54,790 nt of DNA from Patescibacteria group bacterium (GTDB lineage: Bacteria > Patescibacteriota > Patescibacteriia > Patescibacteriales > GWC2-42-12): NCBI GenBank assembly GCA_028703305.1, contig JAQVNC010000001.1, positions 1-54,790 of the forward strand, given 5' to 3'. The notes beneath the pieces were generated by a model. That model was not told the DNA's origin and searched no databases. It worked only from the letters and a program-made list of their open reading frames with translations. Below, piece after piece: positions 25,372 to 53,903 of the stretch. The translations under genes were made by a program, and so were the position numbers. Position 1 is the first letter of the stretch; each line of letters opens with the position of its first letter.

Positions 25372-25445
25372 GGGCATGTAGCTCAGCTGGTTAGAGCGCC
25401 ACACTGATAATGTGGAGGTCCCAGGTTCGATTCCCGGCATGCCCA
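25372..25445 (+). tRNA. tRNA-Ile (GAT)
   Basis: Acceptor GGGCATG/CATGCCC; anticodon loop CTGATAA. Confidence 0.9.
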
Positions 25446-25507
25446 CCCTCCTATGCTCTTCCACTTCGTTTCAGAGCTTCGGAGGACAAGCCATTATAGG
25501 ATTGTCT

Positions 25508-25744: not shown

Positions 25745-25781
25745 TTCGCTAAGCTTGCGATACGAAGCTTTAGCGTAGTAT

Positions 25782-25857
25782 CGCGGGGTAGAGCAGTTGG
25801 CAGCTCGCCAGGCCCATAACCTGGAGGTCGCCGGTTCAAATCCGGCCCCCGCAACCA
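25782..25857 (+). tRNA. tRNA-Met (CAT), initiator type
   Basis: 5' CGCGGGG with C1xA72 mismatch; anticodon loop CCCATAA; CCA encoded. Confidence 0.85.
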
Positions 25858-25950
25858 TCCTTCACTCCTCCGTTTCACTTCGGAGTTACGGATGGCAAGC
25901 CGTTATATTTTAGGGCTTGCCCTCCATAGCTCCGCAAGGAGCGACGGAGA

Positions 25951-26025
25951 GCCGGGGTAGCTCAGTGGTAGAGCAAATGACTGAAAATCATTGTGTCGTG
26001 AGTCCGATTCTCACCCCCGGCACCA
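25951..26025 (+). tRNA. tRNA-Phe (GAA)
   Basis: Acceptor GCCGGGG/CCCCGGC; anticodon loop CTGAAAA; CCA encoded; unusual T-loop TCCGATT. Confidence 0.8.
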
Positions 26026-26039
26026 TTATCAATTGAACT

Positions 26040-26110
26040 CGGGCTGTCGTATACCGGTAGTACGCATGCTTTGGGAGCATGTTGACTGGGTTCAATTCCC
26101 AGCAGCCCGA
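26040..26110 (+). tRNA. tRNA-Pro (TGG)
   Basis: Acceptor CGGGCTG/CAGCCCG; anticodon loop TTTGGGA; T-arm CTGGGTTCAATTCCCAG. Confidence 0.85.
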
Positions 26111-26202
26111 CAAAATTTCGTGAGGCCTTTATGGCCTTAGAAATTTTTGTTTGGTTGATGGGCGGCAGCGAATCCAGCGTGTCGGAGTGGGGCTTCCGCC
26201 CC

Positions 26203-26222
26203 TTCAATTCCCAGCAGCCCGA
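26203..26222 (+). repeat. exact 20-nt copy of the tRNA-Pro 3' end
   Basis: TTCAATTCCCAGCAGCCCGA is identical to 26091-26110; no matching 5' acceptor strand upstream. Confidence 0.9.
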
Positions 26223-26363
26223 CCCTACTTCGCCAAGGCTTCGTAGGACAAGCCGCCATAATTAGCGGGCTTGCCCGCCGTAGCTTTTGCGACAGCAAAA
26301 GCGTATTTCTAATTTGCGACATTTAGCGGGCTTGCCCGCCGAAGCTCGCAAAAGCGAGCGTAG

Positions 26364-26435
26364 GCGGGTATCGTATAGTGGCTTTTATGCTAGCCTTCCA
26401 AGCTGGAGAGAGGGGTTCGATTCCCCTTACCCGCT
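26364..26435 (+). tRNA. tRNA-Gly (TCC)
   Basis: Acceptor GCGGGTA/TACCCGC; anticodon loop CTTCCAA; T-arm AGGGGTTCGATTCCCCT. Confidence 0.9.
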
Positions 26436-26439
26436 CATA

Positions 26440-27359: not shown

Positions 27360-27373
27360 GTTATAATAGTATT

Positions 27374-27408
27374 GTCATTGCGAGGAGCGCCAGCGACGAA
27401 GCAATCTC
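27374..27408. repeat. REP-like element, GTCATTGCGAGGAGC...GCAATCTC type
   Basis: GTCATTGCGAGGAGCGCCAGCGACGAAGCAATCTC; a related copy lies in reverse orientation at 48926-48968. Confidence 0.75.
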
Positions 27409-28465: not shown

Positions 28466-29338
28466 ATGAGTATCCAAAAGGTTCATGCGCCGAAAACTCT
28501 AAGAGTCAAATCTGGAGAAAAAAAACAAATAGGCGCAAAGGCAGTAGGAGCAACAAATAAGGAAGAAAAGGAGTTGCTCTATACAGTAATAGGAAAAGGC
28601 GAGGTAGATCCCAAAGGAGTTTTTACGGCTCCGAGCTTAACTAGCGAAGAGGAAACAATAATTATAACAGAATCAGCATTCGATGATTCTATGACAGCGG
28701 AGACCGTCATTACCATTGAGGCTATTAAACCCTTAGCAGTTAAGCCAGCTTACGGCCTAGAACTATTTGCCGGCGCGAACAAGAAGTTTGAAGCGGATTA
28801 CCCGTTTCCTGTTTCCCCGAGCTGGCATATTGGAAATTTAGCCAGGGGTATAGGCAACATTGACGTGAGCACGGGGCTTTATACTGCCCCGGAGATTATC
28901 CCGCACGAAGTCGAAATAACCATTGTTTTAATCGATAAAAATCGGCCAAACAACTTTGCTGAAGCGAAAATCAGATTGTTTCCAATTGAGATGAAAGTCG
29001 GAACGCAGAGGAAGATTCACGCAGGAGAAGAAAATGTTCAACTCCCAATCGAATCACATAACGACTCAAGCGGATTAGATAATTTCACCTGCACAATCAT
29101 TTCCTCTCCAATGGTTGGGAGAATTATAGAGGACAATAAGTACGCCCCGCCATTAATCATTGACAGCCCTGAAATGGTAAAGGTAAAAGCAACATCAAAA
29201 TTGGATAAATCAAAGTCGGTCATTTTGGAATTTGAACTTGATCTACCTCTTTGTAGAGCTTGTAAAAGCATAACCAACTCAGACGGCCGCTGCACTATCT
29301 GCGGCATGCCGAGATCTTATGGTGCAAGCATTAAATAG
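28466..29338 (+). CDS. hypothetical protein: three Ig-like repeats plus C-terminal CxxC...CxxC zinc ribbon, no signal peptide
   Basis: SD GAGGGCAGAGG; repeats of about 85 aa ending GVFTAP / GLYTAP / KYAPP; CRACKSITNSDGRCTICG. Confidence 0.7.
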   Translation: MSIQKVHAPKTLRVKSGEKKQIGAKAVGATNKEEKELLYTVIGKGEVDPKGVFTAPSLTSEEETIIITESAFDDSMTAETVITIEAIKPLAVKPAYGLELFAGANKKFEADYPFPVSPSWHIGNLARGIGNIDVSTGLYTAPEIIPHEVEITIVLIDKNRPNNFAEAKIRLFPIEMKVGTQRKIHAGEENVQLPIESHNDSSGLDNFTCTIISSPMVGRIIEDNKYAPPLIIDSPEMVKVKATSKLDKSKSVILEFELDLPLCRACKSITNSDGRCTICGMPRSYGASIK

Positions 29339-29353
29339 AAAAGGAGAAATAAA

Positions 29354-30112
29354 ATGAGCTTCGAAAAAATAGGGAAAGTAATTGGTACCATCGTGGAGGT
29401 TCTTGAAATATTGGCTACCGGAAAACTTACTGGCGCTATCATGAGGCTTTTTCACGCGAAAGATATCAACAATAAGGCGGGTTCTTCAGTGGCCACGGCA
29501 ACCGGGGATCAAGCGAATGTTAAAACCGATGACGGAAAGATTAAATCTGGTGTTATCGGTTGGGGGCCGGAAGACAATATTATCAGAGAATCGATTATAA
29601 ACCTTTTGGCTACCAAAGATCAAATCAGGGAAACTACCTATCGAAACTTTGAGACCTGGCTGGAAAAAGAACATTTTTTTGACTGGGTATCTTGGATACA
29701 TTTTTTTACTATCCAGGCCGAAAAACTTCCAGACCAAGCGGTAATAACTCTTAACAACATAATTGACGCTATTACTCTTGGCGGCGGCAACGATGCTGGC
29801 CTGAAGTACATCCAAGGCTTGACCGGAGAAATTTATCTTAAGCTGTTAAAGGCTTACGGAAAAAAATTCTTCGAGATGATGGAGGCGCTAGCAAAAAAAT
29901 ATCCATGGCTTTCAGTAAATGAGTTAACAAAACTATTAAACGAGGGTGTGGGCAAAATTGAAGAAAGCCTTGATCATGGGGAAGCTTGGGTTAACATGCA
30001 ACAGCAAGGCAATTTCTGGCAGCGTCATTTCTGCCCTTGGCGATTACTGCAAATGCCACCGGATGTATCCAGCTACAATCAAAATTACCACAACAATGGA
30101 GGTGGAATATGA
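29354..30112 (+). CDS. hypothetical protein (mostly helical by eye)
   Basis: SD AAGGAG at 29341-29346; stop overlaps the next start (ATGA at 30109-30112). Confidence 0.65.
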   Translation: MSFEKIGKVIGTIVEVLEILATGKLTGAIMRLFHAKDINNKAGSSVATATGDQANVKTDDGKIKSGVIGWGPEDNIIRESIINLLATKDQIRETTYRNFETWLEKEHFFDWVSWIHFFTIQAEKLPDQAVITLNNIIDAITLGGGNDAGLKYIQGLTGEIYLKLLKAYGKKFFEMMEALAKKYPWLSVNELTKLLNEGVGKIEESLDHGEAWVNMQQQGNFWQRHFCPWRLLQMPPDVSSYNQNYHNNGGGI

Positions 30113-31242
30113 ACAGGCTCATTAACTTGCTAAGAAGAATTTCTTCTCTCGCATACAATTCCTATGCAGTAATCCATGCCCAATTTCCTGGATTTGTTGT
30201 GTATGGAGGATTGCTACCAATCTCGTTATCAATAATTTTTGCCTGCGCCGGTTATGATCGAGCAAACCAAATTTGCGCAGTAATTTGGGTATTGGTGGGC
30301 TTCTACATCGGGACCCTCCCGGTTGTAGTCGCGACATCAGCCGCCGCCGGAGCAGTATCTGATCCTAAACACCCAGTGGCCGGGGTTGAAGATAAAGTAG
30401 TAAAAGCCTATAAAGGCATACGAACCTACTTTTTCTATCTCGCCGCCTGGTCCTTAATTATCGGGGTTACTGGGATTTACCGCAACTGGGGAAGTATAAT
30501 AACTGTTCTGGCGATAATTATCGTTACCACTATGATGAAGGTTGCGTGGGGGGTGACTGGCAAAGGACGAGCTAGAAAAATATTTATTAGCGGCTTGTCT
30601 ATAGTTCTGGTCTTCAACTTTATGACCGTAATTTCTCCAGTCTTTTACAACAAGACTCTTGGTTTTGACCCCGTTACCTATTTTCGTCCATCGGTAGTTG
30701 ACGAACAAATTGTAAAGGCTGAAAAAACTGCCAAAGATATCAGGGATGCCTATGTCGGCCAAATGTTGGCTGGAATAAGCAATACGATAGACCCCGGAAC
30801 CGGCCAGCCTGCAAACATTGAGCTGCTTACCGTCCAAAAAGTCCGAGTTGAAATCAACGCACAAAAGATACAGGCCATCAAGGAAGAACAATATCCTCTG
30901 ACAATGAGCGGTTTTAAAAAAGCTGTTCTTTATTCATTCAGAAACCCTAGGGGAGTCGAGGGGGCAGAGGACAACCCACAAATCAGAATCGTCAAACACA
31001 GCGACAAGGCATGGGAGGTTGAATTCTTAACTGACCAAATGACTACTGTACTTCGACGATGGCCAGCCGGAGCAACAATTGTCTTCGCCGGTTACGAAGA
31101 AAAAGAAGTAACCAGAAATAACCCTGCCGGCGGAAATGAACCATTCTATCTACCAGTAGGAGTGCCACTCGGCAGAACGGCTGACACTTCGCTCATTGTA
31201 AAATATAAAGTAGGAGGAAAAATAATATTAAATTTCAGCTAG
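30109..31242 (+). CDS. hypothetical polytopic membrane protein with C-terminal soluble domain
   Basis: Start set to ATG 30109 behind GGAGGTGG; about 5 TM helices, then a soluble region of about 190 aa. Confidence 0.65.
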   Translation: MNRLINLLRRISSLAYNSYAVIHAQFPGFVVYGGLLPISLSIIFACAGYDRANQICAVIWVLVGFYIGTLPVVVATSAAAGAVSDPKHPVAGVEDKVVKAYKGIRTYFFYLAAWSLIIGVTGIYRNWGSIITVLAIIIVTTMMKVAWGVTGKGRARKIFISGLSIVLVFNFMTVISPVFYNKTLGFDPVTYFRPSVVDEQIVKAEKTAKDIRDAYVGQMLAGISNTIDPGTGQPANIELLTVQKVRVEINAQKIQAIKEEQYPLTMSGFKKAVLYSFRNPRGVEGAEDNPQIRIVKHSDKAWEVEFLTDQMTTVLRRWPAGATIVFAGYEEKEVTRNNPAGGNEPFYLPVGVPLGRTADTSLIVKYKVGGKIILNFS

Positions 31243-31353: not shown

Positions 31354-31830
31354 ATGAAATCAAAAATCATTTTCATCTCACTTCTTTTACTAGTATTTTT
31401 TTCAATTCCTCTATCAATGGCTAATGCTGGAACATGCAAAAAGGGTGTTGAAACTGGCGGTCCCTGCCAAACAACAGTTGATTGCACAAATACAAATTAT
31501 GCCGGATATACCTGCGACACAACTAATCCTGCCACCTCCGGCACCGTCTCCCTCCCCAACCCAATTACTATCCCTGACGCAAATAAAGCCAACCCCATAC
31601 CCTACCTCCTCGGAATAGTTATCAACTCCGTTCTCGGCATTGTCGGTTCTTTAGCTTTGGTAATGTTCATCTACGGAGGAATTACATGGATGCTGTCGGC
31701 CGGCAATCAGGAGCAGGTGACTAAAGGCAAAAACATTTTAATCTGGGCGGCTGCCGGCATTGTTATTATTTTTACGGCCTACGCTCTAGTCAAATTTGTC
31801 TTAACCACGGTAACGGGAACCGGCGGATAA
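31354..31830 (+). CDS. TrbC/VirB2-like (T4SS-type) pilin paralogue with Cys-rich ectodomain
   Basis: Signal peptide ...SMANA; four Cys in CKKGVETGGPCQTTVDCTNTNYAGYTCD; core IYGGITWMLSAGNQEQVTKGKNIL between two TM helices. Confidence 0.7.
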   Translation: MKSKIIFISLLLLVFFSIPLSMANAGTCKKGVETGGPCQTTVDCTNTNYAGYTCDTTNPATSGTVSLPNPITIPDANKANPIPYLLGIVINSVLGIVGSLALVMFIYGGITWMLSAGNQEQVTKGKNILIWAAAGIVIIFTAYALVKFVLTTVTGTGG

Positions 31831-31958: not shown

Positions 31959-32306
31959 CTATTTTTCTACTTTTTTAATTATAGCCGATAAAATATTTCT
32001 TAACTCTTTAGCTTCGTTCAATAAATCATTCATCCTGCTTTTAAATTCGGGGTTCGCTTCAGCGATTAGTTCCAGCCAATGTATGGCCTCTTTAGATTCT
32101 TTTCTTGATATTTTTAGCCTGTGCACAAAATCCTTTTTCCCTAAAGAATCGTTGGCTTCGCGGTAATTAGCTCCTACTGAACCAGCCGACCCAACAACTT
32201 GGCCGATTAATCTATTATTCATAGAATTTTTTGGCAAAGCCTTGCATAATCTAATTACCCTTTTGGCAAATTCCGTTGTTCTATCTTCTAGATCAAATTT
32301 TTGCAT
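31959..32306 (-). CDS. four-helix-bundle protein (23S rRNA intervening-sequence protein family)
   Basis: 115 aa; typical QVVGSAGSVGANYREA and KESKEAIHWLEL motifs. Confidence 0.8.
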   Translation of the reverse strand: MQKFDLEDRTTEFAKRVIRLCKALPKNSMNNRLIGQVVGSAGSVGANYREANDSLGKKDFVHRLKISRKESKEAIHWLELIAEANPEFKSRMNDLLNEAKELRNILSAIIKKVEK

Positions 32307-42601: not shown

Positions 42602-43162
42602 TTATTCTAAAACCTCTATTTTAGCCGTTTTTACGCCAAATTTAATTGCGTCAGGCCTTTCCAGCATCCAAACATCAACCCGATTAGAAAATCGCTTATT
42701 CATTCTGTCTCTAACAACAAATACTCTGTCGCCGAATAACCCCGGTATTTTAACTTTAGAGCCAAAAGGCAAAAAATTGGCCGCGATTGTATCTTCCACC
42801 CCATTTTCGCAAACATTAAAGCCATTAGCGGTAATACATGGGGAATTATCAGTTTGACCAGCCTCTGAATTATAAGCGGTGATAAGCACATGCTTGGAAA
42901 AATCCACATCAGCGCCTTCGCTTTCCGGTAATTTACCATTAAATTCCATAATATTAGCAACCACATCTTGGTTAACTTCATCTTGGCTGGAAATGATGCC
43001 TTGATCTTGGCTAAAATCAGTATTTTCTTCCATTTGGCTAGCCATTACCGGCGCTGGAAACAATAAAAACTCAAAAAAGAAAATAAATACCAAAAAAATT
43101 ACCACTTTTTTGGCTTGTTTTAGCGTAATTATTTTATTATGGTTCTTTTTTAACGCATCCAT
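42602..43162 (-). CDS. 3D (RlpA/MltA-like) domain protein, membrane-anchored
   Basis: 186 aa; TM anchor; C-terminal ITAYNSEAGQTDNSPCITANG ... VRDRMNKRFSNRVDVWM. Confidence 0.7.
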   Translation of the reverse strand: MDALKKNHNKIITLKQAKKVVIFLVFIFFFEFLLFPAPVMASQMEENTDFSQDQGIISSQDEVNQDVVANIMEFNGKLPESEGADVDFSKHVLITAYNSEAGQTDNSPCITANGFNVCENGVEDTIAANFLPFGSKVKIPGLFGDRVFVVRDRMNKRFSNRVDVWMLERPDAIKFGVKTAKIEVLE

Positions 43163-43407: not shown

Positions 43408-43602
43408 ATGATAGACAGATATATCGGAATCGCTGTTGTGGCTGTATTAACTGGAGTGGTGTGTTATTTAATCGCTAAAAAAAGCGGCAGGAACGCTACA
43501 TTATGGTTTATGGCCGGAATTGTCTTTAATTTCCTTGCCATCGGCTTACTTCTACTGCTTAAAAACTTTAAACTGACAAAAAAAGCGCGAGGTGACTTAT
43601 GA
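43408..43602 (+). CDS. small two-TM membrane protein
   Basis: 64 aa; SD AGGAGG at 43397-43402; stop overlaps the next start (ATGA at 43599-43602). Confidence 0.6.
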   Translation: MIDRYIGIAVVAVLTGVVCYLIAKKSGRNATLWFMAGIVFNFLAIGLLLLLKNFKLTKKARGDL

Positions 43603-45278
43603 AGCTCAAATTATTGGTGAAAGGGTTGGTAATTCTGTTGGCCTGTGCTGCCTTATCTGTGTTACTTTGGGTATTTTCCCAACTACTCGGAATTTACTGG
43701 GTTTACGGGGTATTTCTCGGCGTGGCTATCTCGGCTTTTGGTCTGGACATTGTTTTTTCCAGAATGATAGCGGCCTTGCTTACCATCTTAACTTTGCTGA
43801 GCCTACCTTGGATTATTTCCTTTTTGTTATTAGGGAAAAGGAAGGCTTTGGTGCTGACCGTAGGCGTGATGTTGATTATTGGTGGAACCTTCGCCGTCTA
43901 CTACGGTTCTGCTGATGTATTCTTTGACCGCGAAACCGGTAAATCAGTTAAGTACTACATTAAAACCATGGACGGTTTTAGATTTTCCAACTCAGCTGAT
44001 TATGACCCAAGATTTGGCATAAAATACAAGGCCATCACGCCCGAGGTGGTCAAAGAATTCTACTTCTGGGAGAAAACCGGCAAAATGCAAAATATGCCGA
44101 ACGTAACCAGAGGAAAATATTTTGATCAAGTCACGGGCGAACCGATTGTCTGGTACGCGGAGAGACCAGATGGAACGCGGGAATTATTTCCTTTACCCGG
44201 CCACGATCCTTTAACCGGCAAAAACTTAAAATCTATGACCGCCGAAATAGCGGAAGCTATGGTCAAGGCCGAAAAAGAGCAAGAAGCAAAACGGGAAGAA
44301 GAAAAAAAAGCACAAATAGAGGCGCAACTTAAAGAAAAGGAAAGAGAACAGGCTCTGTCGGAAAAACAGAAAATTGAAGAAGAAAAAAAGTTAAGAAAAG
44401 AAAAAATACGAGAAGAAAAAGTATTGAGGGAAGAGCAAAAACCAAAAGAAAATCCTGCAGAAGCTCAAAGGAAAGAACAAAAACACTTGGCAGAAATTAA
44501 AGCCTTGAAGCAAAAAATTGAGGAAAAAGAAGCCGAGGCCAATGCCCTAAAAGTAGAAAAATTAAGAAGAGAACAAAAAAACAGAGACGCAGAGGCCAAA
44601 GCACACTCTCTACCAAAAAGGCAGATAATCAAATTTGATATGGACAGCTACTCTAAAGCGAACTTTTTTAGTGAACCGCTTTATGTCCATATTACTGTCT
44701 CTATGGGCACATCTGCAAAAAATTCACGGAAGACAAAACAAACAAACTATGGGCCAGTAGGAGGGTCCACTAATAGCGGCGGAGGATATAATGAGACCTT
44801 AAAAAATAGCAACTTTCGAACCGTCTTGACTTTTTATGTGAGAAAACTTTACACAGTTTCTAACCTTACTATAGCTGTTATAGGGGCCGAAAACTATGCA
44901 GGCTTATCTCAAACAATCAAATTTCATTCAGTCAAACTGGCGGATGAGTTAGGACGAGAGCATGAAGCCGTTTGTATATATAACATATCAACCGGCGAAT
45001 ACAACGATAATACACTGTCTTTTGGTATGGGGGAGGAAAAAATGATTGCTTTGATATTCCCTCAATCCAAACTAAGAAAATTGTTTTTCAAAATTAACTG
45101 GTGCGACAATTCTATCTTGAACTGCCAGGATGTTTACGGAACGTCGATGCCAGCCTTAACGCCAGGATCTTTCTATTCACCCCAGGAGTTGACACCTGCT
45201 GAATCTAGACCTTCTTTCCTGATTAGGAAGTCGACCATACCAGGAGTCCATAAATCACCGGTTATTAACCTTCCATAA
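43599..45278 (+). CDS. hypothetical membrane protein: 4-5 TM helices, soluble domain, K/E coiled coil, C-terminal domain
   Basis: 559 aa; motifs FFDRETGKSVKYY and YFDQVTGEPIVWY; K/E-rich stretch of about 110 aa. Confidence 0.65.
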   Translation: MKLKLLVKGLVILLACAALSVLLWVFSQLLGIYWVYGVFLGVAISAFGLDIVFSRMIAALLTILTLLSLPWIISFLLLGKRKALVLTVGVMLIIGGTFAVYYGSADVFFDRETGKSVKYYIKTMDGFRFSNSADYDPRFGIKYKAITPEVVKEFYFWEKTGKMQNMPNVTRGKYFDQVTGEPIVWYAERPDGTRELFPLPGHDPLTGKNLKSMTAEIAEAMVKAEKEQEAKREEEKKAQIEAQLKEKEREQALSEKQKIEEEKKLRKEKIREEKVLREEQKPKENPAEAQRKEQKHLAEIKALKQKIEEKEAEANALKVEKLRREQKNRDAEAKAHSLPKRQIIKFDMDSYSKANFFSEPLYVHITVSMGTSAKNSRKTKQTNYGPVGGSTNSGGGYNETLKNSNFRTVLTFYVRKLYTVSNLTIAVIGAENYAGLSQTIKFHSVKLADELGREHEAVCIYNISTGEYNDNTLSFGMGEEKMIALIFPQSKLRKLFFKINWCDNSILNCQDVYGTSMPALTPGSFYSPQELTPAESRPSFLIRKSTIPGVHKSPVINLP

Positions 45279-45353
45279 AAAAACAATTACATTTTCTGAC
45301 TATTAATCAACTTCGTTTTGTGAAGAAACCATCGTTCCTTAGATTAAATTGCG

Positions 45354-45382
45354 GAGCTGCTCAAAAAAGAGCAGCTTTTTTA
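45354..45382 (+). terminator. intrinsic terminator
   Basis: GAGCTGCTC-AAAAAA-GAGCAGCTT followed by a T-run. Confidence 0.65.
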
Positions 45383-45443
45383 TAAATAATTAATCAATTT
45401 TAGCCATAAAAAACTAATTTATATAACATTATTTCCAATTATC

Positions 45444-45472
45444 TTGACAATTAATAAATTTAATGGTATTAT
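45444..45472 (+). promoter_or_regulatory. promoter candidate for the lipoprotein gene
   Basis: TTGACA (45444-45449), 17-nt spacer, TATTAT (45467-45472). Confidence 0.5.
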
Positions 45473-45494
45473 ACAAAATCAGCTCCTTAAAAAA

Positions 45495-45559
45495 TTTTTC
45501 AAAATTATCCTAAATAGCGGGTTATAATATAGTCCTTTGCTTAGGATAATTTTGAAAAA
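45495..45559 (+). promoter_or_regulatory. 19-bp perfect-stem hairpin in the 5' leader
   Basis: TTTTTCAAAATTATCCTAA (45495-45513) pairs with TTAGGATAATTTTGAAAAA (45541-45559). Confidence 0.6.
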
Positions 45560-45594
45560 AACAAAAAATAAACCTTTTGAGGGGGTAAAGAACA

Positions 45595-46203
45595 ATGAAA
45601 ATAAGAACTTTCGCAGTTAGTATAATGGTGTTGGCTTTAGCGCTCGCGACCACCGGTTGCGTACGCGCAATCGTAAAGGACGTCAACCCGCGAGTTATAG
45701 GCAGCGATATCGATGCCACCGTTGAAAGGAATAAAGCTAACAAAGAAAAATATACAACTGCAATCAACGCGGAAAGTTTAAAAAGATCCCGAGCCGCAGA
45801 AAGACACCTAGTCGCTTTGGCAGAAATTAAAGGTTTATCAACCAGCGAAACCGGAAAAGGAGGAAAAGTACTTACTGCCGATGGTATTTTGGGCGGATTT
45901 CCAGCAATAATTATCAACGATTCCGCCTGTGCTGTCTCTGGAAAAATAACCCAAATAGGTGGCGATTATGGAGGTACTACCTGGTCTTTTGACGTTAAGG
46001 CCAATGGCGGAATAAAAGAAATGAAACTTGAATCGCGAAATTATGCCATAAAGTGGTCATATCCACCTTCGGCCATAAACCACCCTCTGCCCGGTGAAGG
46101 CGATTCTGTCTTAACTGTCCATGATATCGTTAAATACATTGACGATCGGACAAAAGCACAATATCATGGCGGATACAAAATCAAGGGCAGATCATGCTAT
46201 TAA
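45595..46203 (+). CDS. lipoprotein of unknown function
   Basis: 202 aa; SD GAGGGGG; lipobox LATTGC. Confidence 0.65.
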   Translation: MKIRTFAVSIMVLALALATTGCVRAIVKDVNPRVIGSDIDATVERNKANKEKYTTAINAESLKRSRAAERHLVALAEIKGLSTSETGKGGKVLTADGILGGFPAIIINDSACAVSGKITQIGGDYGGTTWSFDVKANGGIKEMKLESRNYAIKWSYPPSAINHPLPGEGDSVLTVHDIVKYIDDRTKAQYHGGYKIKGRSCY

Positions 46204-46208
46204 CAACA

Positions 46209-46239
46209 TGGGAGAAGATATAATCTTCTCCCATTTTTT
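46209..46239 (+). terminator. intrinsic terminator
   Basis: GGGAGAAGA-TATAA-TCTTCTCCC followed by a T-run. Confidence 0.7.
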
Positions 46240-46308
46240 ATTAAAATTATTGAGGTTAGTTCATAACTAAATTTTCACCGCTAGCTCCAGTATTGCCCTC
46301 ACCTACCA

Positions 46309-46776
46309 TCAATTTGGTTTTAGTGGGGTTAGATTTTCACCGCTAGTCCCAGTAGCGCCCGTTCCTGCGCCTGCGCTTCCCGGCAGATTGCTAAACACAA
46401 AATAAGTTATGGAATAAGCAAGAATAATAATAACCAGACCGATAACCGCGCGGGTAATTGTATCTTTAGCTTTAGTCACTTTTTCCTCATCCCCTTGCGC
46501 CGTCATCCAAAGAAAACCCGCGTAAATAATTAGCACTAAAAAGATAATACCTAGAAGGCCTAAAAAAGCTTTAATACCTGTAGCCATAATACCTGACAAA
46601 CTATTAGCGCCAGTAGTTACGTCTCCGCTGCCCCATGATGGCCGGCCGGCATTATTCAGTTGAGTTCTTAGGTCAGCATTAACTCCGGCGCTAGCATTTT
46701 GAGCTAAACAAAAATTTATTGCCAATGAAAATAATAATACCGCCAATATAATTTTTTTAAAATATTTCTTTAACAT
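46309..46776 (-). CDS. TrbC/VirB2-like pilin paralogue 1 (last in the array)
   Basis: Signal peptide; core IIYAGFLWMTAQGDEEKVTKAKDTITRAVIGLVII; G/A/T-rich C-tail. Confidence 0.7.
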   Translation of the reverse strand: MLKKYFKKIILAVLLFSLAINFCLAQNASAGVNADLRTQLNNAGRPSWGSGDVTTGANSLSGIMATGIKAFLGLLGIIFLVLIIYAGFLWMTAQGDEEKVTKAKDTITRAVIGLVIIILAYSITYFVFSNLPGSAGAGTGATGTSGENLTPLKPN

Positions 46777-46778
46777 AT

Positions 46779-47183
46779 TTATTTTAAAATTCCGCTGGTT
46801 TTAGTTAAACCATCAATTATCCAATAACTAATGGCATAAGCGCCGATAGTTATAATAAGGCCGATAACCGCCCGGGTTAGCGTATCTTTAGCTTTAGTAA
46901 CTTTTTCCTCTTCGCCTCTTGCCATCATCCAGCCATAGCCGGCATATATAATTAAAATTAAAAAGATAACGCCTAGGATACTTAAAAACGCTTGGATGCC
47001 AATGCCGACAATACCGGCTAAATCGTTTGTTCCGATACTTACCGGCTGATATGGGCTACTCGGGTCTTTACCCATTTTTTCTAAATTTCCATAAGCGTCG
47101 CTCGCGGCTGAAACAATATAAGGCAAGGCTAAAATTGCTATTAAACTAATTAAAATTACAAATTTTTTAAAAAAATTTTTCAT
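46779..47183 (-). CDS. TrbC/VirB2-like pilin paralogue 2
   Basis: Core IIYAGYGWMMARGEEEKVTKAKDTLTRAVIGLII. Confidence 0.7.
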   Translation of the reverse strand: MKNFFKKFVILISLIAILALPYIVSAASDAYGNLEKMGKDPSSPYQPVSIGTNDLAGIVGIGIQAFLSILGVIFLILIIYAGYGWMMARGEEEKVTKAKDTLTRAVIGLIITIGAYAISYWIIDGLTKTSGILK

Positions 47184-47245
47184 TATTTTAAAATAATTTT
47201 TATATTTATAATTATCTGTTTGTGCTAAATTAACAATATTCTTAA

Positions 47246-47716
47246 TTACTCGCCTTCGCCGCCGCCATCCGGGTACTGTGTCGCTGCCGGCGTTGTCCCA
47301 GCGCCCGTTGTATTTGCGCTACCACCGCCATTTAAAGTTCCGGCCGCTAACTTATCCATAACAAAAATACTAATGGCATAGGCCGCTACCACGATTATTA
47401 TACCGACAATCGCTCGTGTTATTGTTTCTTTAGCTTTAGTAACTTTTTCTTCTTCGCCCCTGGCCATCATCCAGTTATAACCCGCGTAGACCATTAAGAT
47501 TAAAAAAACCACGCCTAATATAGATAGGGCTCCGCTTATTACTGTGTTTATAATTGTAAAAAGTTTATCTCCAGAAGCATCTTGATATCCACCCTCTGTC
47601 ATGCTTACGTCTTGCAACTTGCCTAAAGCCGCGTTGTCAGCAGACACTAAATGCGGCAGCATAATAAAAGCAACCAGCCAAACTAACAAAATAATTTTAA
47701 AATATTTTTTAAACAT
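47246..47716 (-). CDS. TrbC/VirB2-like pilin paralogue 3
   Basis: Core MVYAGYNWMMARGEEEKVTKAKETITRAIVGIII; G/T/A-rich C-tail. Confidence 0.7.
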   Translation of the reverse strand: MFKKYFKIILLVWLVAFIMLPHLVSADNAALGKLQDVSMTEGGYQDASGDKLFTIINTVISGALSILGVVFLILMVYAGYNWMMARGEEEKVTKAKETITRAIVGIIIVVAAYAISIFVMDKLAAGTLNGGGSANTTGAGTTPAATQYPDGGGEGE

Positions 47717-47743
47717 CTTTCACTTATTTAAATAATTTAACTT

Positions 47744-48157
47744 TTATTTTAAAGTCGCGTCACCCAAAACCTTAACTACATACCAGCTAATTCCATAAGC
47801 GGCCAGAACCAAAATTAAACCAATAATCGCGTTAGTTAAAGTATTTTTGGCTTTGGTTACCAACTCTTCATTGCCGCGCGCCGTCATCCAAGTATAGCCG
47901 CCATAAATCGCCAGAGCTAAAAATACTACTCCAATAAAGCTTAAAATCGTATTAATAACTAAAGAAATCATCTCGTCCGGCTCGGTAATGCCCGTGTCAT
48001 ACCCGGCCCCCTTGTCTCCGGCCACTTTATCAAGCGGTCCCTCGCCTTTAAAAGCGTCTTCCAAATTAGCGGCCTGGCAAAAATTTAAACTTAAAACTAA
48101 CAGAACAAAAACTATAGCTATCTTTTTTATAATTTTAAAATTTAAGATTTTAACCAT
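47744..48157 (-). CDS. TrbC/VirB2-like pilin paralogue 4
   Basis: Core AIYGGYTWMTARGNEELVTKAKNTLTNAIIGLIL. Confidence 0.7.
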   Translation of the reverse strand: MVKILNFKIIKKIAIVFVLLVLSLNFCQAANLEDAFKGEGPLDKVAGDKGAGYDTGITEPDEMISLVINTILSFIGVVFLALAIYGGYTWMTARGNEELVTKAKNTLTNAIIGLILVLAAYGISWYVVKVLGDATLK

Positions 48158-48525
48158 AAAGTTGCCGCTAACTGCGTTATGGCATAAGCGCCTAAAACCA
48201 CCGCCAAGCCTATAATCGCGTAAATTATAATATTTTTAGCTCTTTCCACTTCCTGCTCATTGCCTCGCGCCATCATCCAAATAAATCCGGCGTATATTAT
48301 TAAACCTAAAAAAACAACCCCGATAAACATAGTGGAAATACTTATAATTGCTCCTATTTTAGAATACAGCATTGTTGCCGAATTGTCTGTTGGGCTATAA
48401 CCCATTCCTGTGGCCGAGCTCTTGAGGCCGCTAAAAAAATCAGCCGAGGCCGGAGTCGTATTAACGTTAAGCAACAAAATACTTAACGCCACCAAGCCAA
48501 TTATTGAAAATGAAAAATTTTTCAT
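48142..48525 (-). CDS. TrbC/VirB2-like pilin paralogue 5
   Basis: Core IIYAGFIWMMARGNEQEVERAKNIIIYAIIGLAV. Confidence 0.7.
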   Translation of the reverse strand: MKNFSFSIIGLVALSILLLNVNTTPASADFFSGLKSSATGMGYSPTDNSATMLYSKIGAIISISTMFIGVVFLGLIIYAGFIWMMARGNEQEVERAKNIIIYAIIGLAVVLGAYAITQLAATLWLKS

Positions 48526-48527
48526 AA

Positions 48528-48923
48528 TTACTGCCCCTTAAGAGTGTTGCCCAAAAAAGAAGTTATGGCATAAGCCATTAAAACTATTGCCAAGCCGATA
48601 ACCGCGGCGATTATAATATCTTTAGCTTTGCCGGCTGTCTGCTCATTGCCCATGGAGAACATCCATATATAACCGCCGTAAATCATTAAAATAAAAAAGA
48701 CTACGCCTAAAAACGATAAGCCCACACCCACGATTTTTCCAATGGTTATTTCTAGATTATCTTTTGTTACGCCGCCATAGACTTTTGCGGTATCATCTAG
48801 ACCAGTCGTTCCGACTGGATTTTTTGGATCATAAGCCGACAACCCCACCTGCGCCATTACTAAAAATGACAAAACGATCATTAGGCTGGAAAGAATAATT
48901 TTATGATATTTTGTTATAGCCAT
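48528..48923 (-). CDS. TrbC/VirB2-like pilin paralogue 6
   Basis: Core MIYGGYIWMFSMGNEQTAGKAKDIIIAAVIGLAI. Confidence 0.7.
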   Translation of the reverse strand: MAITKYHKIILSSLMIVLSFLVMAQVGLSAYDPKNPVGTTGLDDTAKVYGGVTKDNLEITIGKIVGVGLSFLGVVFFILMIYGGYIWMFSMGNEQTAGKAKDIIIAAVIGLAIVLMAYAITSFLGNTLKGQ

Positions 48924-48925
48924 AA

Positions 48926-48968
48926 GAGATTGCCGCGTCGCCCCGAGTACGGGGCTCCTCGCAATGAC
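48926..48968. repeat. REP-like element, GTCATTGCGAGGAGC...GCAATCTC type, reverse orientation
   Basis: Reverse complement reads GTCATTGCGAGGAGCCCCGTACTCGGGGCGACGCGGCAATCTC. Confidence 0.75.
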
Positions 48969-49074
48969 AATAAAGTATTTCCACTGCTCTATTCACTATC
49001 GTTAAATAGCGCGCAGGGCAGTGGCTCCCGCCAAAGCGGGAAACCACCTATTCTTAATACCGGTATTAAGAAAA

Positions 49075-49488
49075 TTAACTTTCCGTAGTAGCCGTAATCA
49101 GCGAATTTAAAACAAAAGTCGCGATGGCAAAAGCCGCTACGATAATTACCAAGCCGATGATGCCGGCGATGATTAATTTTTTAGCTTCGCCAACCTTGTC
49201 TTCATTGCCTCCGGCAGTCATCCATTTAAAGCCGCCCAGCAAAATTATAACCACGGCAATAATGCCCAAGAAACCCAAAATAACGCGGATAACCGAAGCC
49301 GCGATATCGCGCGGATCGCGTTCACCCAAACCGGTGGTAGTCTTAATGTTGTCTTTTAGCGTATCGCTGCCCCAAGGATTTAAAGTATCGCTGGCCGCTA
49401 AAGCCGGCAAAGAAAAAGACAAAACCGGAGTTAAAACAAATAGCGCCATGGCCAGTATCACCGCTTTTTTGAATAATGTTTTTTTCAT
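49075..49488 (-). CDS. TrbC/VirB2-like pilin paralogue 7 (first in the array)
   Basis: SD GGGAGGTG; core ILLGGFKWMTAGGNEDKVGEAKKLIIAGIIGLVI. Confidence 0.7.
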   Translation of the reverse strand: MKKTLFKKAVILAMALFVLTPVLSFSLPALAASDTLNPWGSDTLKDNIKTTTGLGERDPRDIAASVIRVILGFLGIIAVVIILLGGFKWMTAGGNEDKVGEAKKLIIAGIIGLVIIVAAFAIATFVLNSLITATTES

Positions 49489-49615
49489 TTTTCACCTCCC
49501 TTCAGGAAAACACGAATACGCGCGAATTCAATTCGCCGTATTTGTGCCGTTTAGATAATTTAAGTTATTAACATTAATTATATTTTACCATAGAACTTTA
49601 GTTTCAGCCAATAGC

Positions 49616-49698
49616 CTCGCAACCAGCAACCCATAGCTCGCAATTCGGAACCAAAGTTACAGGTTATGAGTTATGAGATGCGAGATGCGAGTTGCGAT
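49616..49698. repeat. inverted heptamer-word arrays
   Basis: CTCGCAA CCAGCAA CCCATAG CTCGCAA TTCGGAA ... TTATGAG TTATGAG ATGCGAG ATGCGAG TTGCGAT (49664-49698). Confidence 0.75.
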
Positions 49699-49730
49699 TT
49701 ATAAGAAAAACTGTTATAATTTTTTGTATT

Positions 49731-52679
49731 ATGGTTGTTTCATATTCTTCAAATCACATAAAATCACCGCAAAATTGGCGCCAGGCCAAGAAAAAATATT
49801 TTTTAAATAAAGCCAAGAAAAACACCTCGGGTTTCGGTTCCAGGGGCGGCGTTAAAAAATATTCCGGCGGCAACAATAAAAATCCATTAAAAATAAAATG
49901 GCCTAAGCCTAAAACCATTTTTATCGGCCTCTTGGCTTTGTTTATTTTTGGTTATGGCGGCTTTCTCTGGCTGACCCATGATCTGCCTGATCCCAACCGC
50001 TTAATTGAGCGCCAAGTGCCGGAGAGCACAAAAATTTATGACCGTACCGGCCAAACTATCCTTTATGAAATTCATGGCGACCAAAAGCGCACTATGATTA
50101 GCTTAAAAGATGTGCCGGAAAATTTAAAAAACGCCACTATTTCCATAGAGGATAAGGATTTTTATAAGCATGGCGGCTTTAGCTTGTGGGCAATTTTCAG
50201 AACCATAATAACAGACATATTTTTCGGCAAAACAGCCGGCGGCTCAACCCTGACCCAGCAGTTTGTTAAAAACGCGGTTTTAACCAATGAAAAAACTTTT
50301 ACCAGAAAAATTAAAGAAATTATTTTAGCCTACCGCTTGGAAAAGAAATTTTCCAAAGATGAAATTTTGCAGATGTACTTTAATGAAATCCCTTATGGTT
50401 CAACCGCTTACGGCGTTGAAGCGGCCAGCCAAAAATATTTCGGTAAATCGGCCCGCGATTTGAATTTGGCCGAATCGGCTATTTTGGCCGCCATTCCCCA
50501 GGCCCCCAGCCGCTATTCGCCTTATGGACCCAATAAAGACACTTTATTGGCGCGGCAAAAATATATTTTGGACTTAATGGCCAAATACGGCTATATCACC
50601 AAAGATCAGGCCGCGGAAGCTAAAAACACGCCCTTAACCTTTAAAGCCCCGTCTGACAATATGATGGCGCCGCATTTTGTTATGTATATTAAAGAGCTTT
50701 TAGCGGATAAATACGGCGAAAAAACCATAGAGCAGGGCGGCCTGAAAATTTATACCACGCTTGACTTATATAAACAAAAAATCGCTGAAGAAGTAATCAG
50801 CGAGAAAGCGCCAGGTAATGAAAAAAAATACGGGGCCACTAACGCCGCCCTGATTTCCATTGATCCCAAGAATGGCCAAGTTCTGGCCATGGTGGGTTCG
50901 CGCGATTATTTTAACGACGATATTGACGGCCAAGTTAATGTCGCCTTGCAGTCTCGGCAGCCGGGCTCATCTTTTAAGCCGATTGTCTATACTGCTTCAT
51001 TTATAAAAGGCTATACTCCCCAAACCGTGCTTTATGACGTTGTCACGAATTTTTCTACCGACCCGGCCAAACCCTACGAACCGCATAACTATGATTCAAA
51101 AGAGCATGGCCCGGTTACTATTAAACAGGCTCTGGCCGGCTCATTAAACATTCCGGCGGTTAAAGCTATTTATCTTACCGGCATTGATAATGTCATCAGC
51201 TTGGCGCAAAACTTAGGCTATACCACGCTTAATGATAAAAATCGTTTTGGCTTATCTTTGGTTTTAGGCGGCGGCGAAGTAAAACTGCTTGAGCATACCA
51301 ACGCTTTCAGCGCTTTTGCCCGTGAAGGCGTTAAGCATCCAGTGGCTGTTATTTTAAAAGTTGAAGATAAGGATGGTAAAGTCCTGGAAGAGTTTAAAAA
51401 TCTAGATGAAAAAGTTTTAGAGCCGGATATCGCCCGCCAGACCAACAGCATCTTATCGGACAATTCTGCCCGTGCTTACATCTTTGGGGCGAATAACTCT
51501 CTTACTCTGGGTTCACGCCCGGTCGCGGCTAAGACAGGCACTACCAACGACTACCGCGATGCCTGGACCATCGGCTACACCCCTTCGCTCGTAACCGGCG
51601 TCTGGGTGGGCAATAACGATAACACGGAGATGAAGCGCGGCGCCGACGGTTCAATTGTAGCCGCGCCGATTTGGCATGATTATATGAACAAGGTTTTAGG
51701 CAATACGCCAATTGAATATTTTAATGCTCCGGAAAATAAGCCGGCCGGCAAACCGATTTTAGACGGAGTGACTGATCCAGAGACCACGGTTAAAATTGAT
51801 AAATTTTCCGGCCTATTGGCTAACGAGTTTACGCCGGCTAGCGCCATCATAGAAAAACAATTCAAGCAGGCGCACTGCATCTTATATTACATCAATAAAG
51901 ACGATCCGCGCGGACCGGCGCCGGCCAACCCTAAAAGCGACCCGCAATTTAATTTATGGGAAAACGCCGTTTTAGCATGGGCGAAAAAACAAGGCATTAT
52001 TAACTCACCGGCGCCGACCGAATATGATAATATTCACCGTCCGGAATTAAATCCGGTTATTTCAATTGACTCGCCAAAAAACAATCAAACCATAACCAGC
52101 CAATTATTAAACGCGCAAATCAGCGCCTCGGCTTCTCGGGGTATTAGCAGAGCCGAATATTATATTGACGGTTATTTATTCGGCGCCGCGGCCTCTTACC
52201 CTTTTAGCCTTAATAAATCCATTAGCGCCCTAATCAATGGCTCCCATGAATTAACCGCGCGCGTCTGCGATGATATAGATAATTGCGCTGAACAAAAAAT
52301 AAGGTTTAATTTAGTGAATAATAGCCGGCCAAGAACTTCTAAGATTAACGTGACCCTAATTCAGCCGGCTGAAGGAGCCAATATTATTAAATACGATTTC
52401 CCACTGTCTTTAAAAGCCGAGGTTACAAACCAAGACCAAGTTGCCGGCGTTATTTTTTACTTAAAAGATGCAAGCGGCAACGCGCAAAAAATTATTCAAA
52501 GCCAAGTTATAAATGAAATTGCCGAAGCCCAGATAACCAACGCTTTAACTCCCGGTTCATATAAGCTTTACGCCGAGGCGCACGGCTGGCAGGGTCAAAC
52601 CGCCTTAAGCGAAGAAGTGTCTATCACTATTAATAATATGTCTCAAACGGCCACTACCACGCCGGCCGCCGCCCAATAA
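49731..52679 (+). CDS. class A penicillin-binding protein (PBP1A-like) with C-terminal Ig-like extension
   Basis: Start set to ATG 49731; glycosyltransferase motifs EDKDFYKHGG, GGSTLTQQ; transpeptidase SSFKP and KTGTT. Confidence 0.9.
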   Translation: MVVSYSSNHIKSPQNWRQAKKKYFLNKAKKNTSGFGSRGGVKKYSGGNNKNPLKIKWPKPKTIFIGLLALFIFGYGGFLWLTHDLPDPNRLIERQVPESTKIYDRTGQTILYEIHGDQKRTMISLKDVPENLKNATISIEDKDFYKHGGFSLWAIFRTIITDIFFGKTAGGSTLTQQFVKNAVLTNEKTFTRKIKEIILAYRLEKKFSKDEILQMYFNEIPYGSTAYGVEAASQKYFGKSARDLNLAESAILAAIPQAPSRYSPYGPNKDTLLARQKYILDLMAKYGYITKDQAAEAKNTPLTFKAPSDNMMAPHFVMYIKELLADKYGEKTIEQGGLKIYTTLDLYKQKIAEEVISEKAPGNEKKYGATNAALISIDPKNGQVLAMVGSRDYFNDDIDGQVNVALQSRQPGSSFKPIVYTASFIKGYTPQTVLYDVVTNFSTDPAKPYEPHNYDSKEHGPVTIKQALAGSLNIPAVKAIYLTGIDNVISLAQNLGYTTLNDKNRFGLSLVLGGGEVKLLEHTNAFSAFAREGVKHPVAVILKVEDKDGKVLEEFKNLDEKVLEPDIARQTNSILSDNSARAYIFGANNSLTLGSRPVAAKTGTTNDYRDAWTIGYTPSLVTGVWVGNNDNTEMKRGADGSIVAAPIWHDYMNKVLGNTPIEYFNAPENKPAGKPILDGVTDPETTVKIDKFSGLLANEFTPASAIIEKQFKQAHCILYYINKDDPRGPAPANPKSDPQFNLWENAVLAWAKKQGIINSPAPTEYDNIHRPELNPVISIDSPKNNQTITSQLLNAQISASASRGISRAEYYIDGYLFGAAASYPFSLNKSISALINGSHELTARVCDDIDNCAEQKIRFNLVNNSRPRTSKINVTLIQPAEGANIIKYDFPLSLKAEVTNQDQVAGVIFYLKDASGNAQKIIQSQVINEIAEAQITNALTPGSYKLYAEAHGWQGQTALSEEVSITINNMSQTATTTPAAAQ

Positions 52680-52733: not shown

Positions 52734-53903
52734 TTACTGCTTTATCGGCATAATAATATACAAATAACTATCATCTTGTCCTGCCTGCGCAGTTAGGTCC
52801 GGCTTAATAATACAAGGCGTATTGGAATCTATAACTTCAATTTTAATCGTTTCTTTTTCAATATTGTTTAAACCCTCCAAGAGATAGCGGTAATTAACTA
52901 CTATACTATTATCATCTCCCGACACTTTAGCCTCTAAATTGGTTATATTTTCTCCGGTTTGCCCGGAAACAGAAGAAATCACCACTTGATTTTTACCGGC
53001 CGGAAAATCCAAATTAACATCATTAATGCCGGCCTTAGAAAACAAAGAAGCCATTTTTACGGCGCGAATTAATTCTTGCCGGTCAATAGAAATTTTAGTT
53101 TTACTGTTGCTGGGAATAATTTGCTGATAATCCGGATATTGCCCCTCAATTAAGCGCGACACCAATTCGGTTGAGCCGTAAGTAAATAAAATTTGGTTTT
53201 CTGAAATATAAAATCTTATTTCGGAATTTTTTTCTTCCACCTCATCATCCAAATTAACCGATAAAATTCTTAAAAGCTCCTGTAAGGTTTTAGCCGGCAC
53301 AATAATTTTTTTTTCTTCCTCGCTGTTTGATTTAATTTTAATTTTTTTCTCGGCCAAGCGATAACTGTCGGTCGCGGCAATAGTTAAAATGCCGCCCGAA
53401 AAAGAAAACAGCACGCCGGATAATTCCAACCTGGTTTCACTTACGGCTGTGGCAAAAATTACCTGCGAAATCGCCCTTTTTACTTCTTCAGCCTCGGCAT
53501 AAAAATAATTTTTCCGGTCCACCTCCGGTATTAAAGGAAATTCTTCAGCTGATTGGCCTTTGACTTTAGCTTGATAGTTTTCACAATCAACCAATAAATC
53601 ATTTTCTGTTTGCTCTAAGCCGATTTTTTTATTTGGCAAAAGATTTATACAGTCGGAAATTATTTTTGAACTAACCGTATAAAAACCCTCTCTCTCAATT
53701 TTCCCCCTAACCGTGCTAATTACGCCTATTTCCAGGTTAGTGGCGATCAATCTTATTTTTCCCTCTTCAGCCCTTATTAAAACATTATTTAATATAGGTA
53801 GGTTTACGTTTTTACCGGAAACATGGCCAACCAACGCCAGGCCTTGTTTTAGATTTTCTTGCAAACTGAATATTTTTAACCCGCCGGGAGTTTGATTTGT
53901 CAT
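52734..53903 (-). CDS. dnaN: DNA polymerase III beta sliding clamp
   Basis: 389 aa; three-domain clamp pattern; position directly downstream of dnaA. Confidence 0.85.
   Translation of the reverse strand: MTNQTPGGLKIFSLQENLKQGLALVGHVSGKNVNLPILNNVLIRAEEGKIRLIATNLEIGVISTVRGKIEREGFYTVSSKIISDCINLLPNKKIGLEQTENDLLVDCENYQAKVKGQSAEEFPLIPEVDRKNYFYAEAEEVKRAISQVIFATAVSETRLELSGVLFSFSGGILTIAATDSYRLAEKKIKIKSNSEEEKKIIVPAKTLQELLRILSVNLDDEVEEKNSEIRFYISENQILFTYGSTELVSRLIEGQYPDYQQIIPSNSKTKISIDRQELIRAVKMASLFSKAGINDVNLDFPAGKNQVVISSVSGQTGENITNLEAKVSGDDNSIVVNYRYLLEGLNNIEKETIKIEVIDSNTPCIIKPDLTAQAGQDDSYLYIIMPIKQ

Follow-up and report, generated by a model that had tools for sequence, protein, structure and literature searches.

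We analysed a 54,790-nt stretch of DNA from a Patescibacteria group bacterium (contig JAQVNC010000001.1, 163,831 bp in all; the whole 54,790-nt stretch is referred to here as the window), in which seven pilin genes lie in tandem at positions 46309-49488. The best explanation of this array, to which we give a probability of roughly 60%, is that it is a vertically inherited, fixed operon beside the replication origin, whose lead gene and six accessory genes specify VirB2-like subunits of a surface filament or conduit that depends on a type IV secretion system (T4SS), with the motor of that system encoded elsewhere. Because arrays of VirB2-like genes have already been published, the window array belongs to a known kind and is a further instance of a widespread feature: its seven contiguous PF18895 genes form an array in the published sense of at least two PF18895 or PF04956 genes in tandem or one non-pilin gene apart (PMC12102498). 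In the portions of the published array accounts on which we draw, we did not meet the collinear orthology, the lead-gene palindrome or the two-pilin fusions described below.

Seven pilin genes in a conserved order

The array comprises seven open reading frames (ORFs) on the minus strand. An initial annotation, made from the sequence alone, had described seven co-oriented genes of 127-156 aa, and its coordinates, lengths and gaps agree exactly with the ORF listing of the window; from p1 to p7 the spacings are 2, 62, 27, -16, 2 and 151 nt. A custom hidden Markov model run on the window found exactly nine pilins (p1-p9), in agreement with the two further paralogues and the total of nine in 55 kb that had been reported, the copy at 31354-31830 being on the plus strand. 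Pairwise identity among the window paralogues is 26-49%. The nine genes are as follows, with scores against the families PF18895 and NF045849 that are taken up below.

46309-46776, minus strand: p1, pilin, last gene; 155 aa, G/A/T-rich C-terminal tail; PF18895 42 bits, NF045849 46.5 bits
46779-47183, minus strand: p2, pilin; 134 aa; PF18895 29.9 bits; positional orthologues in relatives
47246-47716, minus strand: p3, pilin; 156 aa, G/A/T-rich C-terminal tail; PF18895 43.4 bits, NF045849 42.3 bits
47744-48157, minus strand: p4, pilin; 137 aa; PF18895 36.5 bits; positional orthologues in relatives
48142-48525, minus strand: p5, pilin; 127 aa; PF18895 36.2 bits; 3' end overlaps the start of p4 by 16 nt
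48528-48923, minus strand: p6, pilin; 131 aa; PF18895 29.7 bits; second in the array in relatives
49075-49488, minus strand: p7, lead pilin, first gene of the operon; 137 aa, predicted mature form 106 aa; PF18895 38.2 bits
31354-31830, plus strand: p8, dispersed Cys-rich pilin; 158 aa, 58-aa ectodomain with four Cys; PF18895 43.8 bits
34548-35015, minus strand: p9, dispersed pilin; 155 aa, closest to p7 (47% identity); PF18895 41.3 bits, NF045849 41.4 bits

Scanning species-representative genomes with the four closest paralogues yielded 78 related loci, whose record titles include Falkowbacteria, Magasanikbacteria, Uhrbacteria and Parcubacteria-group metagenome-assembled genomes; Falkowbacteria and Magasanikbacteria are placed in GTDB class ABY1 in Table S1 of PMC12102498. 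Nearly every related locus carries an array of 5-13 pilin genes, and many have in common the synteny dnaA-dnaN-PBP1a (opposite strand)-array-186-aa 3D protein-DksA-like-LspA-TsaE-L19, as judged by clustering neighbouring ORFs and annotating representatives. When each related pilin was typed by its best match to the window paralogues, the order along transcription was almost everywhere (p8 types), p7, p6, p5, p4, p3, p2, p1 across 74 loci, with perfect collinearity in 42 of them. Only 117 of 1816 informative pairs (6.4%) were discordant, compared with about 908 (about 50%) by permutation and a minimum of 802 over 1000 permutations. The pattern points to positional orthology, with the paralogues probably representing a fixed, ancient set of distinct, non-redundant subunits.

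The overlap of p5 with p4, at the third junction, also recurs in most of the relatives examined, usually at -10 to -28 nt (-133 in one, absent in a few), and because of this recurrence it suggests translational coupling of the pair. The sole same-species sequence is identical, and the next relatives, at 50-87% amino acid identity, have diverged too far for their synonymous sites to carry information; a 2.8-kb Logan contig (SRR22315503) holds five of the seven array genes at 100% identity. In distant arrays, including those of Magasanikbacteria-titled genomes, p8-type genes head the array, ahead of the p7 type. These more distant arrays (L036, L040, L047, L049, L051-L053, L061, L073 and others) have up to 13 genes, the first two to four of them p8-type, with products that reach 200-540 aa and consist of pilin cores with large ectodomains; their informative titles are mostly Magasanikbacteria. 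Separately, L003-L005, L011, L012, L014 and about 25 other loci are titled 'uncultured Gammaproteobacteria bacterium' despite Patescibacteria-type arrays and synteny, which looks like a labelling error.

The lead gene and its candidate cis elements

Of the seven paralogues, p7, which opens the operon, is conserved best, with 75-87% identity in the nearest relatives and a core identity of 80%. It is preceded by a strong Shine-Dalgarno sequence (GGGAGGTG); none is obvious upstream of p6. The elements that surround p7 are as follows.

49582-49611, minus strand: promoter-like site, TTGGCT, 18-nt spacer and TAAAAT with a TG extended -10, in the divergent spacer that separates p7 from the PBP1a gene; a consensus match only
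49051-49072, no strand assigned: perfect 22-nt palindrome TTCTTAATACCGGTATTAAGAA, 2 nt past the p7 stop codon
48924-49074, minus strand: structured p7-p6 spacer of 151 nt with four hairpins; 50% GC against about 40% locally

With as many as three mismatches allowed, the palindrome occurs 21 times in the 1.22 Mb of the window and related loci, in every case 1-6 nt past the stop codon of a p7-type gene. These occurrences are spread over 20 loci (the window, L002, L004-L007, L010, L012, L014, L016, L022, L023, L031, L032, L035, L043, L045, L048, L060 and L077), and where p7 is duplicated the palindrome follows each copy. Its variants are symmetric: paired cells make up 96.2% of the total, both partners vary in five of the ten pairs, and none of 500 shuffles reaches the covariation score. 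The innermost positions covary too (CCGG to TCGA), which an RNA hairpin would not require, so a DNA site for a dimeric protein is possible. The palindrome could thus act as an RNA 3' hairpin or as an operator for a dimeric protein.

The spacer that holds the palindrome is itself structured, with a minimum free energy of -60.3 kcal/mol (z = -4.1) that none of 200 shuffles matched. The first gene is followed by a gap of 50-416 nt, with z between -2.7 and -12, in each of the 17 arrays that we examined, whereas most other gaps are short or overlapping and unstructured; in the more distant arrays, GC-rich hairpins occupy the corresponding position after p7. An Rfam scan of the array returned no family matching the p7-p6 spacer and nothing else of relevance. 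A second element of this spacer (TTGTCATTGCGAGGAGC...GCGACG.(A/G)GCAATCTC) lies at 48928-48972, occurs again in an intergenic region at 27373-27408 and is found in L006, L010, L031 and L032 in either orientation; it looks like a small dispersed palindromic repeat.

Family membership and architecture

The initial annotation had named two pilin families for these proteins, and one of them is supported. All nine copies pass the PF18895 (T4SS_pilin) gathering threshold of 26.6 bits, with scores of 29.7-43.8 bits, whereas every copy is below the 27.9-bit threshold of PF04956 (TrbC/VirB2), eight of nine at 14.7-24.4 bits and p5 with no reported match. The best-scoring curated family after PF18895 is NCBIfam NF045849, the Mbov_0395/MMCAP2_0565 pilin-like conjugal transfer protein of Mycoplasma integrative conjugative elements (ICEs). 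It matches all nine copies over the whole two-helix core (E = 2e-12 to 1e-5) and scores better than the TrbC model; p1, p3 and p9 exceed its cutoff of 40 bits, and the other six score 25.2-36.1 bits. Close homologues are named 'pilin [Patescibacteria group bacterium]' by NCBI.

By hydrophobicity heuristics, the N terminus of each of the nine proteins is rich in K/R and includes a hydrophobic segment, and each protein has two more hydrophobic 19-mers. A plausible signal peptidase I site is likewise present in every copy, with a small residue at -1 and mostly also at -3, in keeping with the signal peptide and two transmembrane helices that had been assigned to each. Predicted mature proteins are 99-133 aa long. 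The variable region, which had been put at 40-70 aa, is shorter when measured from cleavage site to core: 26-36 aa, and 58 aa in p8. The G/A/T-rich tails of p1 and p3 and the four Cys of the copy at 31354 are as described in the initial annotation. The motif that it gave for the region between the helices is strict in p1-p5 and p9, and p6, p7 and p8 deviate from it; the conserved inter-helix loop reads W-M-x-A-x-G-N/D/E-E...K-A-K.

An AlphaFold2 model of p7, built from a 121-sequence alignment, has a core helical hairpin (residues 59-91 and 96-135) with predicted local distance difference test scores of 83-92 and about 30 N-terminal residues of low confidence. Profile alignment by hhalign with VirB2 of A. 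tumefaciens (E = 9.6e-4, probability 22%, 42 columns) brought helix 1 and the motif G-x-x-W-M into register; the mature region of the VirB2 sequence used is identical to PDB 8cue.

Among the top database matches are natural two-pilin fusions of 235-264 aa (P0001-P0006), each chain having two complete modules and four transmembrane helices; P0001 retains part of the signal peptide of its second module. Such fusions fit modules that lie side by side in one assembly and hint at co-assembly.

A proposed model of one lead and six accessory subunits

On the preferred reading, each pilin would be exported by the Sec pathway and cleaved by signal peptidase I, and would then sit in the membrane, its two termini facing outwards and its loop inwards. 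The subunits would be extracted by a VirB4-type T4SS, with its genes elsewhere in the genome, and polymerised into a surface pilus or short conduit, which may serve contact or exchange with a host cell and not conjugation. If the solved F- and T-pili are a guide, the lumen would be lined by the conserved loop, and the variable N-terminal region and C-terminal tails would make up the outer surface. In this assembly p7 would be the major (lead) subunit and p6-p1 non-redundant accessory subunits. We infer that the structured element after p7 keeps expression of p7 high relative to that of p6-p1, acting either as a 3' stem-loop or as the operator of a dimeric protein.

In a more specific version, the seven paralogues depend on one another as obligate partners and together build, in a monoderm, a heteromeric filament or conduit of the VirB2 type in which their arrangement is fixed. 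In that version the palindrome sets the subunit ratio, the ABY1 set has been split from its motor genes and fixed beside the origin, the structure serves host contact or the exchange of nutrients and molecules and not DNA transfer, and the pilin came with an MPF-FATA-type T4SS. Taken with all these parts, it is tentative and on balance unlikely.

If the locus is a conserved, ordered set with a lead gene and a cis element, the working hypothesis shifts from host-range versatility through variable pilins to a multi-subunit structure with defined parts. The locus also offers handles, namely a candidate gene for the major subunit that could be tagged and a 22-nt element. The T4SS of Patescibacteria is essential in the one species tested (PMC10633639).

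The location of the secretion machinery

Several points weigh against the T4SS-dependent operon that we favour, and one set of them concerns the whereabouts of the machinery. Leaving the pilins aside, we scanned 45 ORFs of the window with Pfam, among them all those of 450 aa or more, and eleven of the 45 also with NCBIfam. No VirB4, VirD4, VirB6, VirB3, VirB8 or relaxase was found among them, although a very divergent VirB6 or VirB3 could escape such a scan; the initial annotation had likewise recognised no VirB4, VirD4 or VirB6 gene in the window. At the 78 loci, neither the recurrent families nor the large Walker-A ORFs up to 10 kb from the array included a T4SS gene; rare or single-copy large ORFs were not all annotated there. 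The large Walker-A ORFs were considered as VirB4 candidates and ruled out, being IF2, FtsH and a Mg-chelatase-family ATPase (ChlI-like). A VirB4 in the source genome itself is assumed.

Further points concern the structure that we propose. The division into major and minor subunits is drawn solely from gene position, conservation and cis elements. The palindrome is without a U-tract and is therefore not a canonical intrinsic terminator. No solved structure was detectable as a relative when a pilin profile was compared with PDB sequences; the sole matches, to repeats of the designed 'Pizza' protein, were spurious. A Foldseek search of the PDB with the p7 model gave no match at E <= 0.001 and no pilin in the top 50, although this fold search is uninformative because the hairpin fold is too simple to discriminate. 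Finally, the published accounts that we cite demonstrate a filament of PF18895 proteins in no organism.

These points bear on an alternative in which the proteins are pilin-derived two-helix membrane proteins that work independently of a T4SS, forming some other oligomeric envelope structure (a ring, a pore or a wall-spanning fibre) assembled with cell-wall enzymes and not by VirB4. The array is not beside recognised T4SS genes at the 78 loci and is flanked by PBP1a and a putative 3D-domain wall enzyme, every copy is below the TrbC/VirB2 threshold, and the best Foldseek matches, all at E > 0.1, are generic helical hairpins such as ATP synthase subunit c and CHMP4B, which form rings or polymers. 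Nevertheless, we consider a T4SS-independent structure quite unlikely. PF18895 genes lie beside virB4 in 1135 assemblies of other Patescibacteria classes (PMC12102498) and inside an essential T4SS cluster (PMC10633639), and the window proteins match the conjugal-transfer pilin-like proteins of Mycoplasma ICEs. Related ABY1 genomes, moreover, encode VirB4: it is listed as present in the genomes of L019, L030 and L075 (Tables S1 and S3 of PMC12102498). The same source gives, for one Falkowbacteria genome, VirB2 genes numbered 589-595 and flagged 'not near virB4', with virB4 as gene 789. These gene numbers and VirB4 listings indicate that the ABY1 pilin operon is separate from the motor genes, which lie elsewhere.

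Orthology and the question of a variable repertoire

The initial annotation had suggested a repertoire of interchangeable subunits, and published work likewise draws an analogy to the VirB2 paralogues of Bartonella and Anaplasma and speculates on a variable repertoire (PMC12102498). In such a scheme the paralogues would be interchangeable or antigenically variable, swapped or differentially expressed according to the host or to evade recognition. Ectodomains and tails are indeed the most divergent parts of the proteins, at 25% identity between window paralogues against 47% for the core. There is also some distal turnover, p3 being duplicated in several relatives and lost in some, and p7 is present in two to four tandem copies in L021, L026, L030 and L074.

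Other evidence makes a variable repertoire very unlikely. Ectodomains are better conserved between orthologues (33-49% identity) than between paralogues, and core identity between orthologues is 61-80%. Gene order and one-to-one orthology are kept over 74 loci whose titles span several candidate phyla, and the genes form one tight, co-oriented operon with overlapping or 2-nt junctions, in contrast to silent cassettes. Paralogue cores share 60-75% nucleotide identity and no long identical tracts that could support recombination, so there is no sign of gene conversion or cassette exchange. In addition, the series of pilins in S. epibionticum is reported as essential (PMC10633639). Collinear one-to-one orthology, ectodomain conservation, the lack of identical tracts and the reported essentiality together argue for a fixed, non-redundant set and against interchangeable subunits.

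Chromosomal setting

The window is housekeeping chromosome adjoining the replication origin. The array lies about 4.7 kb from dnaA on an ABY1-class (Falkowbacteria-like) chromosome and is co-directional with the inferred direction of replication, and GC content and skew are uniform over the window. A 203-nt divergent spacer separates p7 from the PBP1a gene. The features that flank the array are as follows.

54155 to the window end: dnaA, C-terminal part, running off the end
52734-53903: dnaN, found by the Pfam scan of window ORFs
49692-52679: PBP1a gene, divergent from the array
46208-46234, no strand assigned: 12-bp hairpin in the gap where p1 and a lipoprotein gene converge; terminator-like, with a T-run on the plus-strand side only
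42602-43162, minus strand: putative 3D-domain protein, secreted, 186 aa; downstream neighbour

Other genes of the window encode PNPase, an ABC ATPase, TrmD, L19, TsaE, LspA and a DksA-like protein, along with ten tRNA genes and a 16S rRNA gene without an adjacent 23S gene. A third alternative, an ordinary mating pilus with which an ICE transfers DNA, draws on the homology to VirB2/TrbC-type and ICE pilin-like proteins and is highly improbable given the stable housekeeping synteny by dnaA and dnaN in many genomes, the native GC content, a sole window recombinase that is XerC/D-like and 30 kb from the array, no relaxase or coupling protein in the window scans, no match of p1 by tblastn against 72,556 plasmids and the rarity of relaxases in Patescibacteria (109 in 3035 genomes; PMC12102498). 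The housekeeping context, with no VirB4, VirD4 or relaxase nearby, thus makes a conjugation pilus unlikely, as the initial annotation had supposed and in agreement with what is cited here from PMC12102498 and PMC10633639.

The gene for the 186-aa protein, which is highly conserved, is the commonest neighbour of the arrays: 32 of 79 sources have it, on the strand of the array and at a median distance of about 1 kb downstream. Homologues of the protein go by the name of 3D (Asp-Asp-Asp) domain protein at NCBI and JGI, and it has a weak NCBIfam match to the C terminus of EntA/EntB (E = 4e-5); a Pfam search of ten orthologues (E <= 1) and a PDB profile search were empty. Speculatively, it may be a cell-wall-cleaving helper in a VirB1-like, wall-opening role, its membership of the system being uncertain. 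The array would thus be flanked by two cell-wall enzymes, PBP1a and this putative 3D-domain protein.

Between the array and the 3D-domain gene lies a window-specific insertion (43408-46203, plus strand) that encodes, in order, a 64-aa membrane peptide, a 559-aa protein with N-terminal transmembrane helices and a long K/E-rich coiled-coil-like stretch, and a 202-aa lipoprotein. The peptide was scanned with NCBIfam only; the 559-aa protein matched no family above its curated cutoff (one chance-level NCBIfam match, E = 0.003, 16 bits against a 350-bit cutoff); and the lipoprotein has weak homologues in L005, L014 and L058. Just past the p1 stop, 46268-46298 is a 31-nt, 84% identical copy of the 3' coding end of p1 (46330-46360, in the G/A/T-rich tail), a small local duplication.

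Just upstream of p8, at 28466-31242 on the plus strand, three consecutive genes have no Pfam or NCBIfam match and do not recur beside pilin arrays at the related loci. They encode proteins of 290 aa with a C-terminal Cys4 motif, 252 aa, and 401 aa with a strongly hydrophobic N-terminal half that by eye looks multi-spanning. An isolated gene for a '23S rRNA-intervening sequence protein' lies at 31959-32306. The 16S rRNA gene (23678-25166) is followed by five tRNA genes (25372-26436), and a 23S rRNA gene is found nowhere in the window.

Comparison with known systems

Quinonero-Coronel et al. (2025; PMC12102498) found VirB2-like pilins (PF18895, PF04956) in 1948 Patescibacteria assemblies. The 441 arrays that they described contain 2-11 pilin genes, which average 25% identity and reach at most 54%, and T4SS genes often lie close to dnaA. 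Wang et al. (2023; PMC10633639) reported an essential series of pilins in the T4SS cluster of Southlakia epibionticum and recognised neither a relaxase nor a coupling protein. A 2025 review (PMC12857230) treats Patescibacteria as the one known exception among monoderm T4SSs, which otherwise are without VirB2. Pilin arrays set the Patescibacteria T4SS apart from those of other monoderms. The window array resembles the published ones in its PF18895 family, its tandem divergent copies (26-49% identity), its location near the origin of a Patescibacteria chromosome and the absence of a relaxase. However, the published arrays, as described in PMC12102498, lie mainly near virB4 in Microgenomatia and Saccharimonadia, whereas the 78 related loci, where classified in Table S1 of that source, are ABY1, and neither there nor in the window did we recognise a T4SS gene less than 10 kb from the array. 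Here the array sits between the genes for PBP1a and the 3D-domain protein, and related arrays reach 13 genes, against the 2-11 published.

Diderm pilins of the VirB2/TrbC/TraA type (PF04956; PDB 8cue and 8exh) share with the window proteins a signal peptide, a two-helix hydrophobic hairpin, the G-x-x-W-M motif that ends helix 1 and a short charged loop. The window proteins differ in their sub-threshold PF04956 scores, in coming from a monoderm and in having genes unlinked to virB3 or virB4; and where VirB2/TrbC/TraA systems have one major pilin, here there are multiple fixed paralogues. Mature pilins of the VirB2/TrbC type are about 70-78 aa long, and those of the window are larger because of an N-terminal extension of about 30 aa.

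Operons of type IV pilus and type II secretion system pseudopilins, and of chaperone-usher pili, encode major and minor subunits, and chaperone-usher operons have a 3' stem-loop after the major gene. The window operon is similar to these in function only, with a lead gene, accessory paralogues in fixed order and, directly after the lead, a stable RNA structure that could favour its expression over that of the genes downstream; there is no homology, and the fold and assembly machinery are different.

The Mycoplasma NF045849 family is named as an ICE component, whereas the window holds a chromosomal, housekeeping seven-gene array without ICE genes, and six of its nine copies score below the family cutoff. 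The two groups have in common a two-helix core and monoderm hosts, with a VirB4 that in Mycoplasma belongs to, and in Patescibacteria nests within, the monoderm MPF-FATA class (PMC12102498). This likeness bears on a question raised in the same 2025 paper, whether the pilin arrived with a monoderm-type T4SS: the match to the Mycoplasma ICE proteins, together with the nesting of VirB4, hints that the pilin came with an MPF-FATA-type system and was not borrowed from diderm systems.

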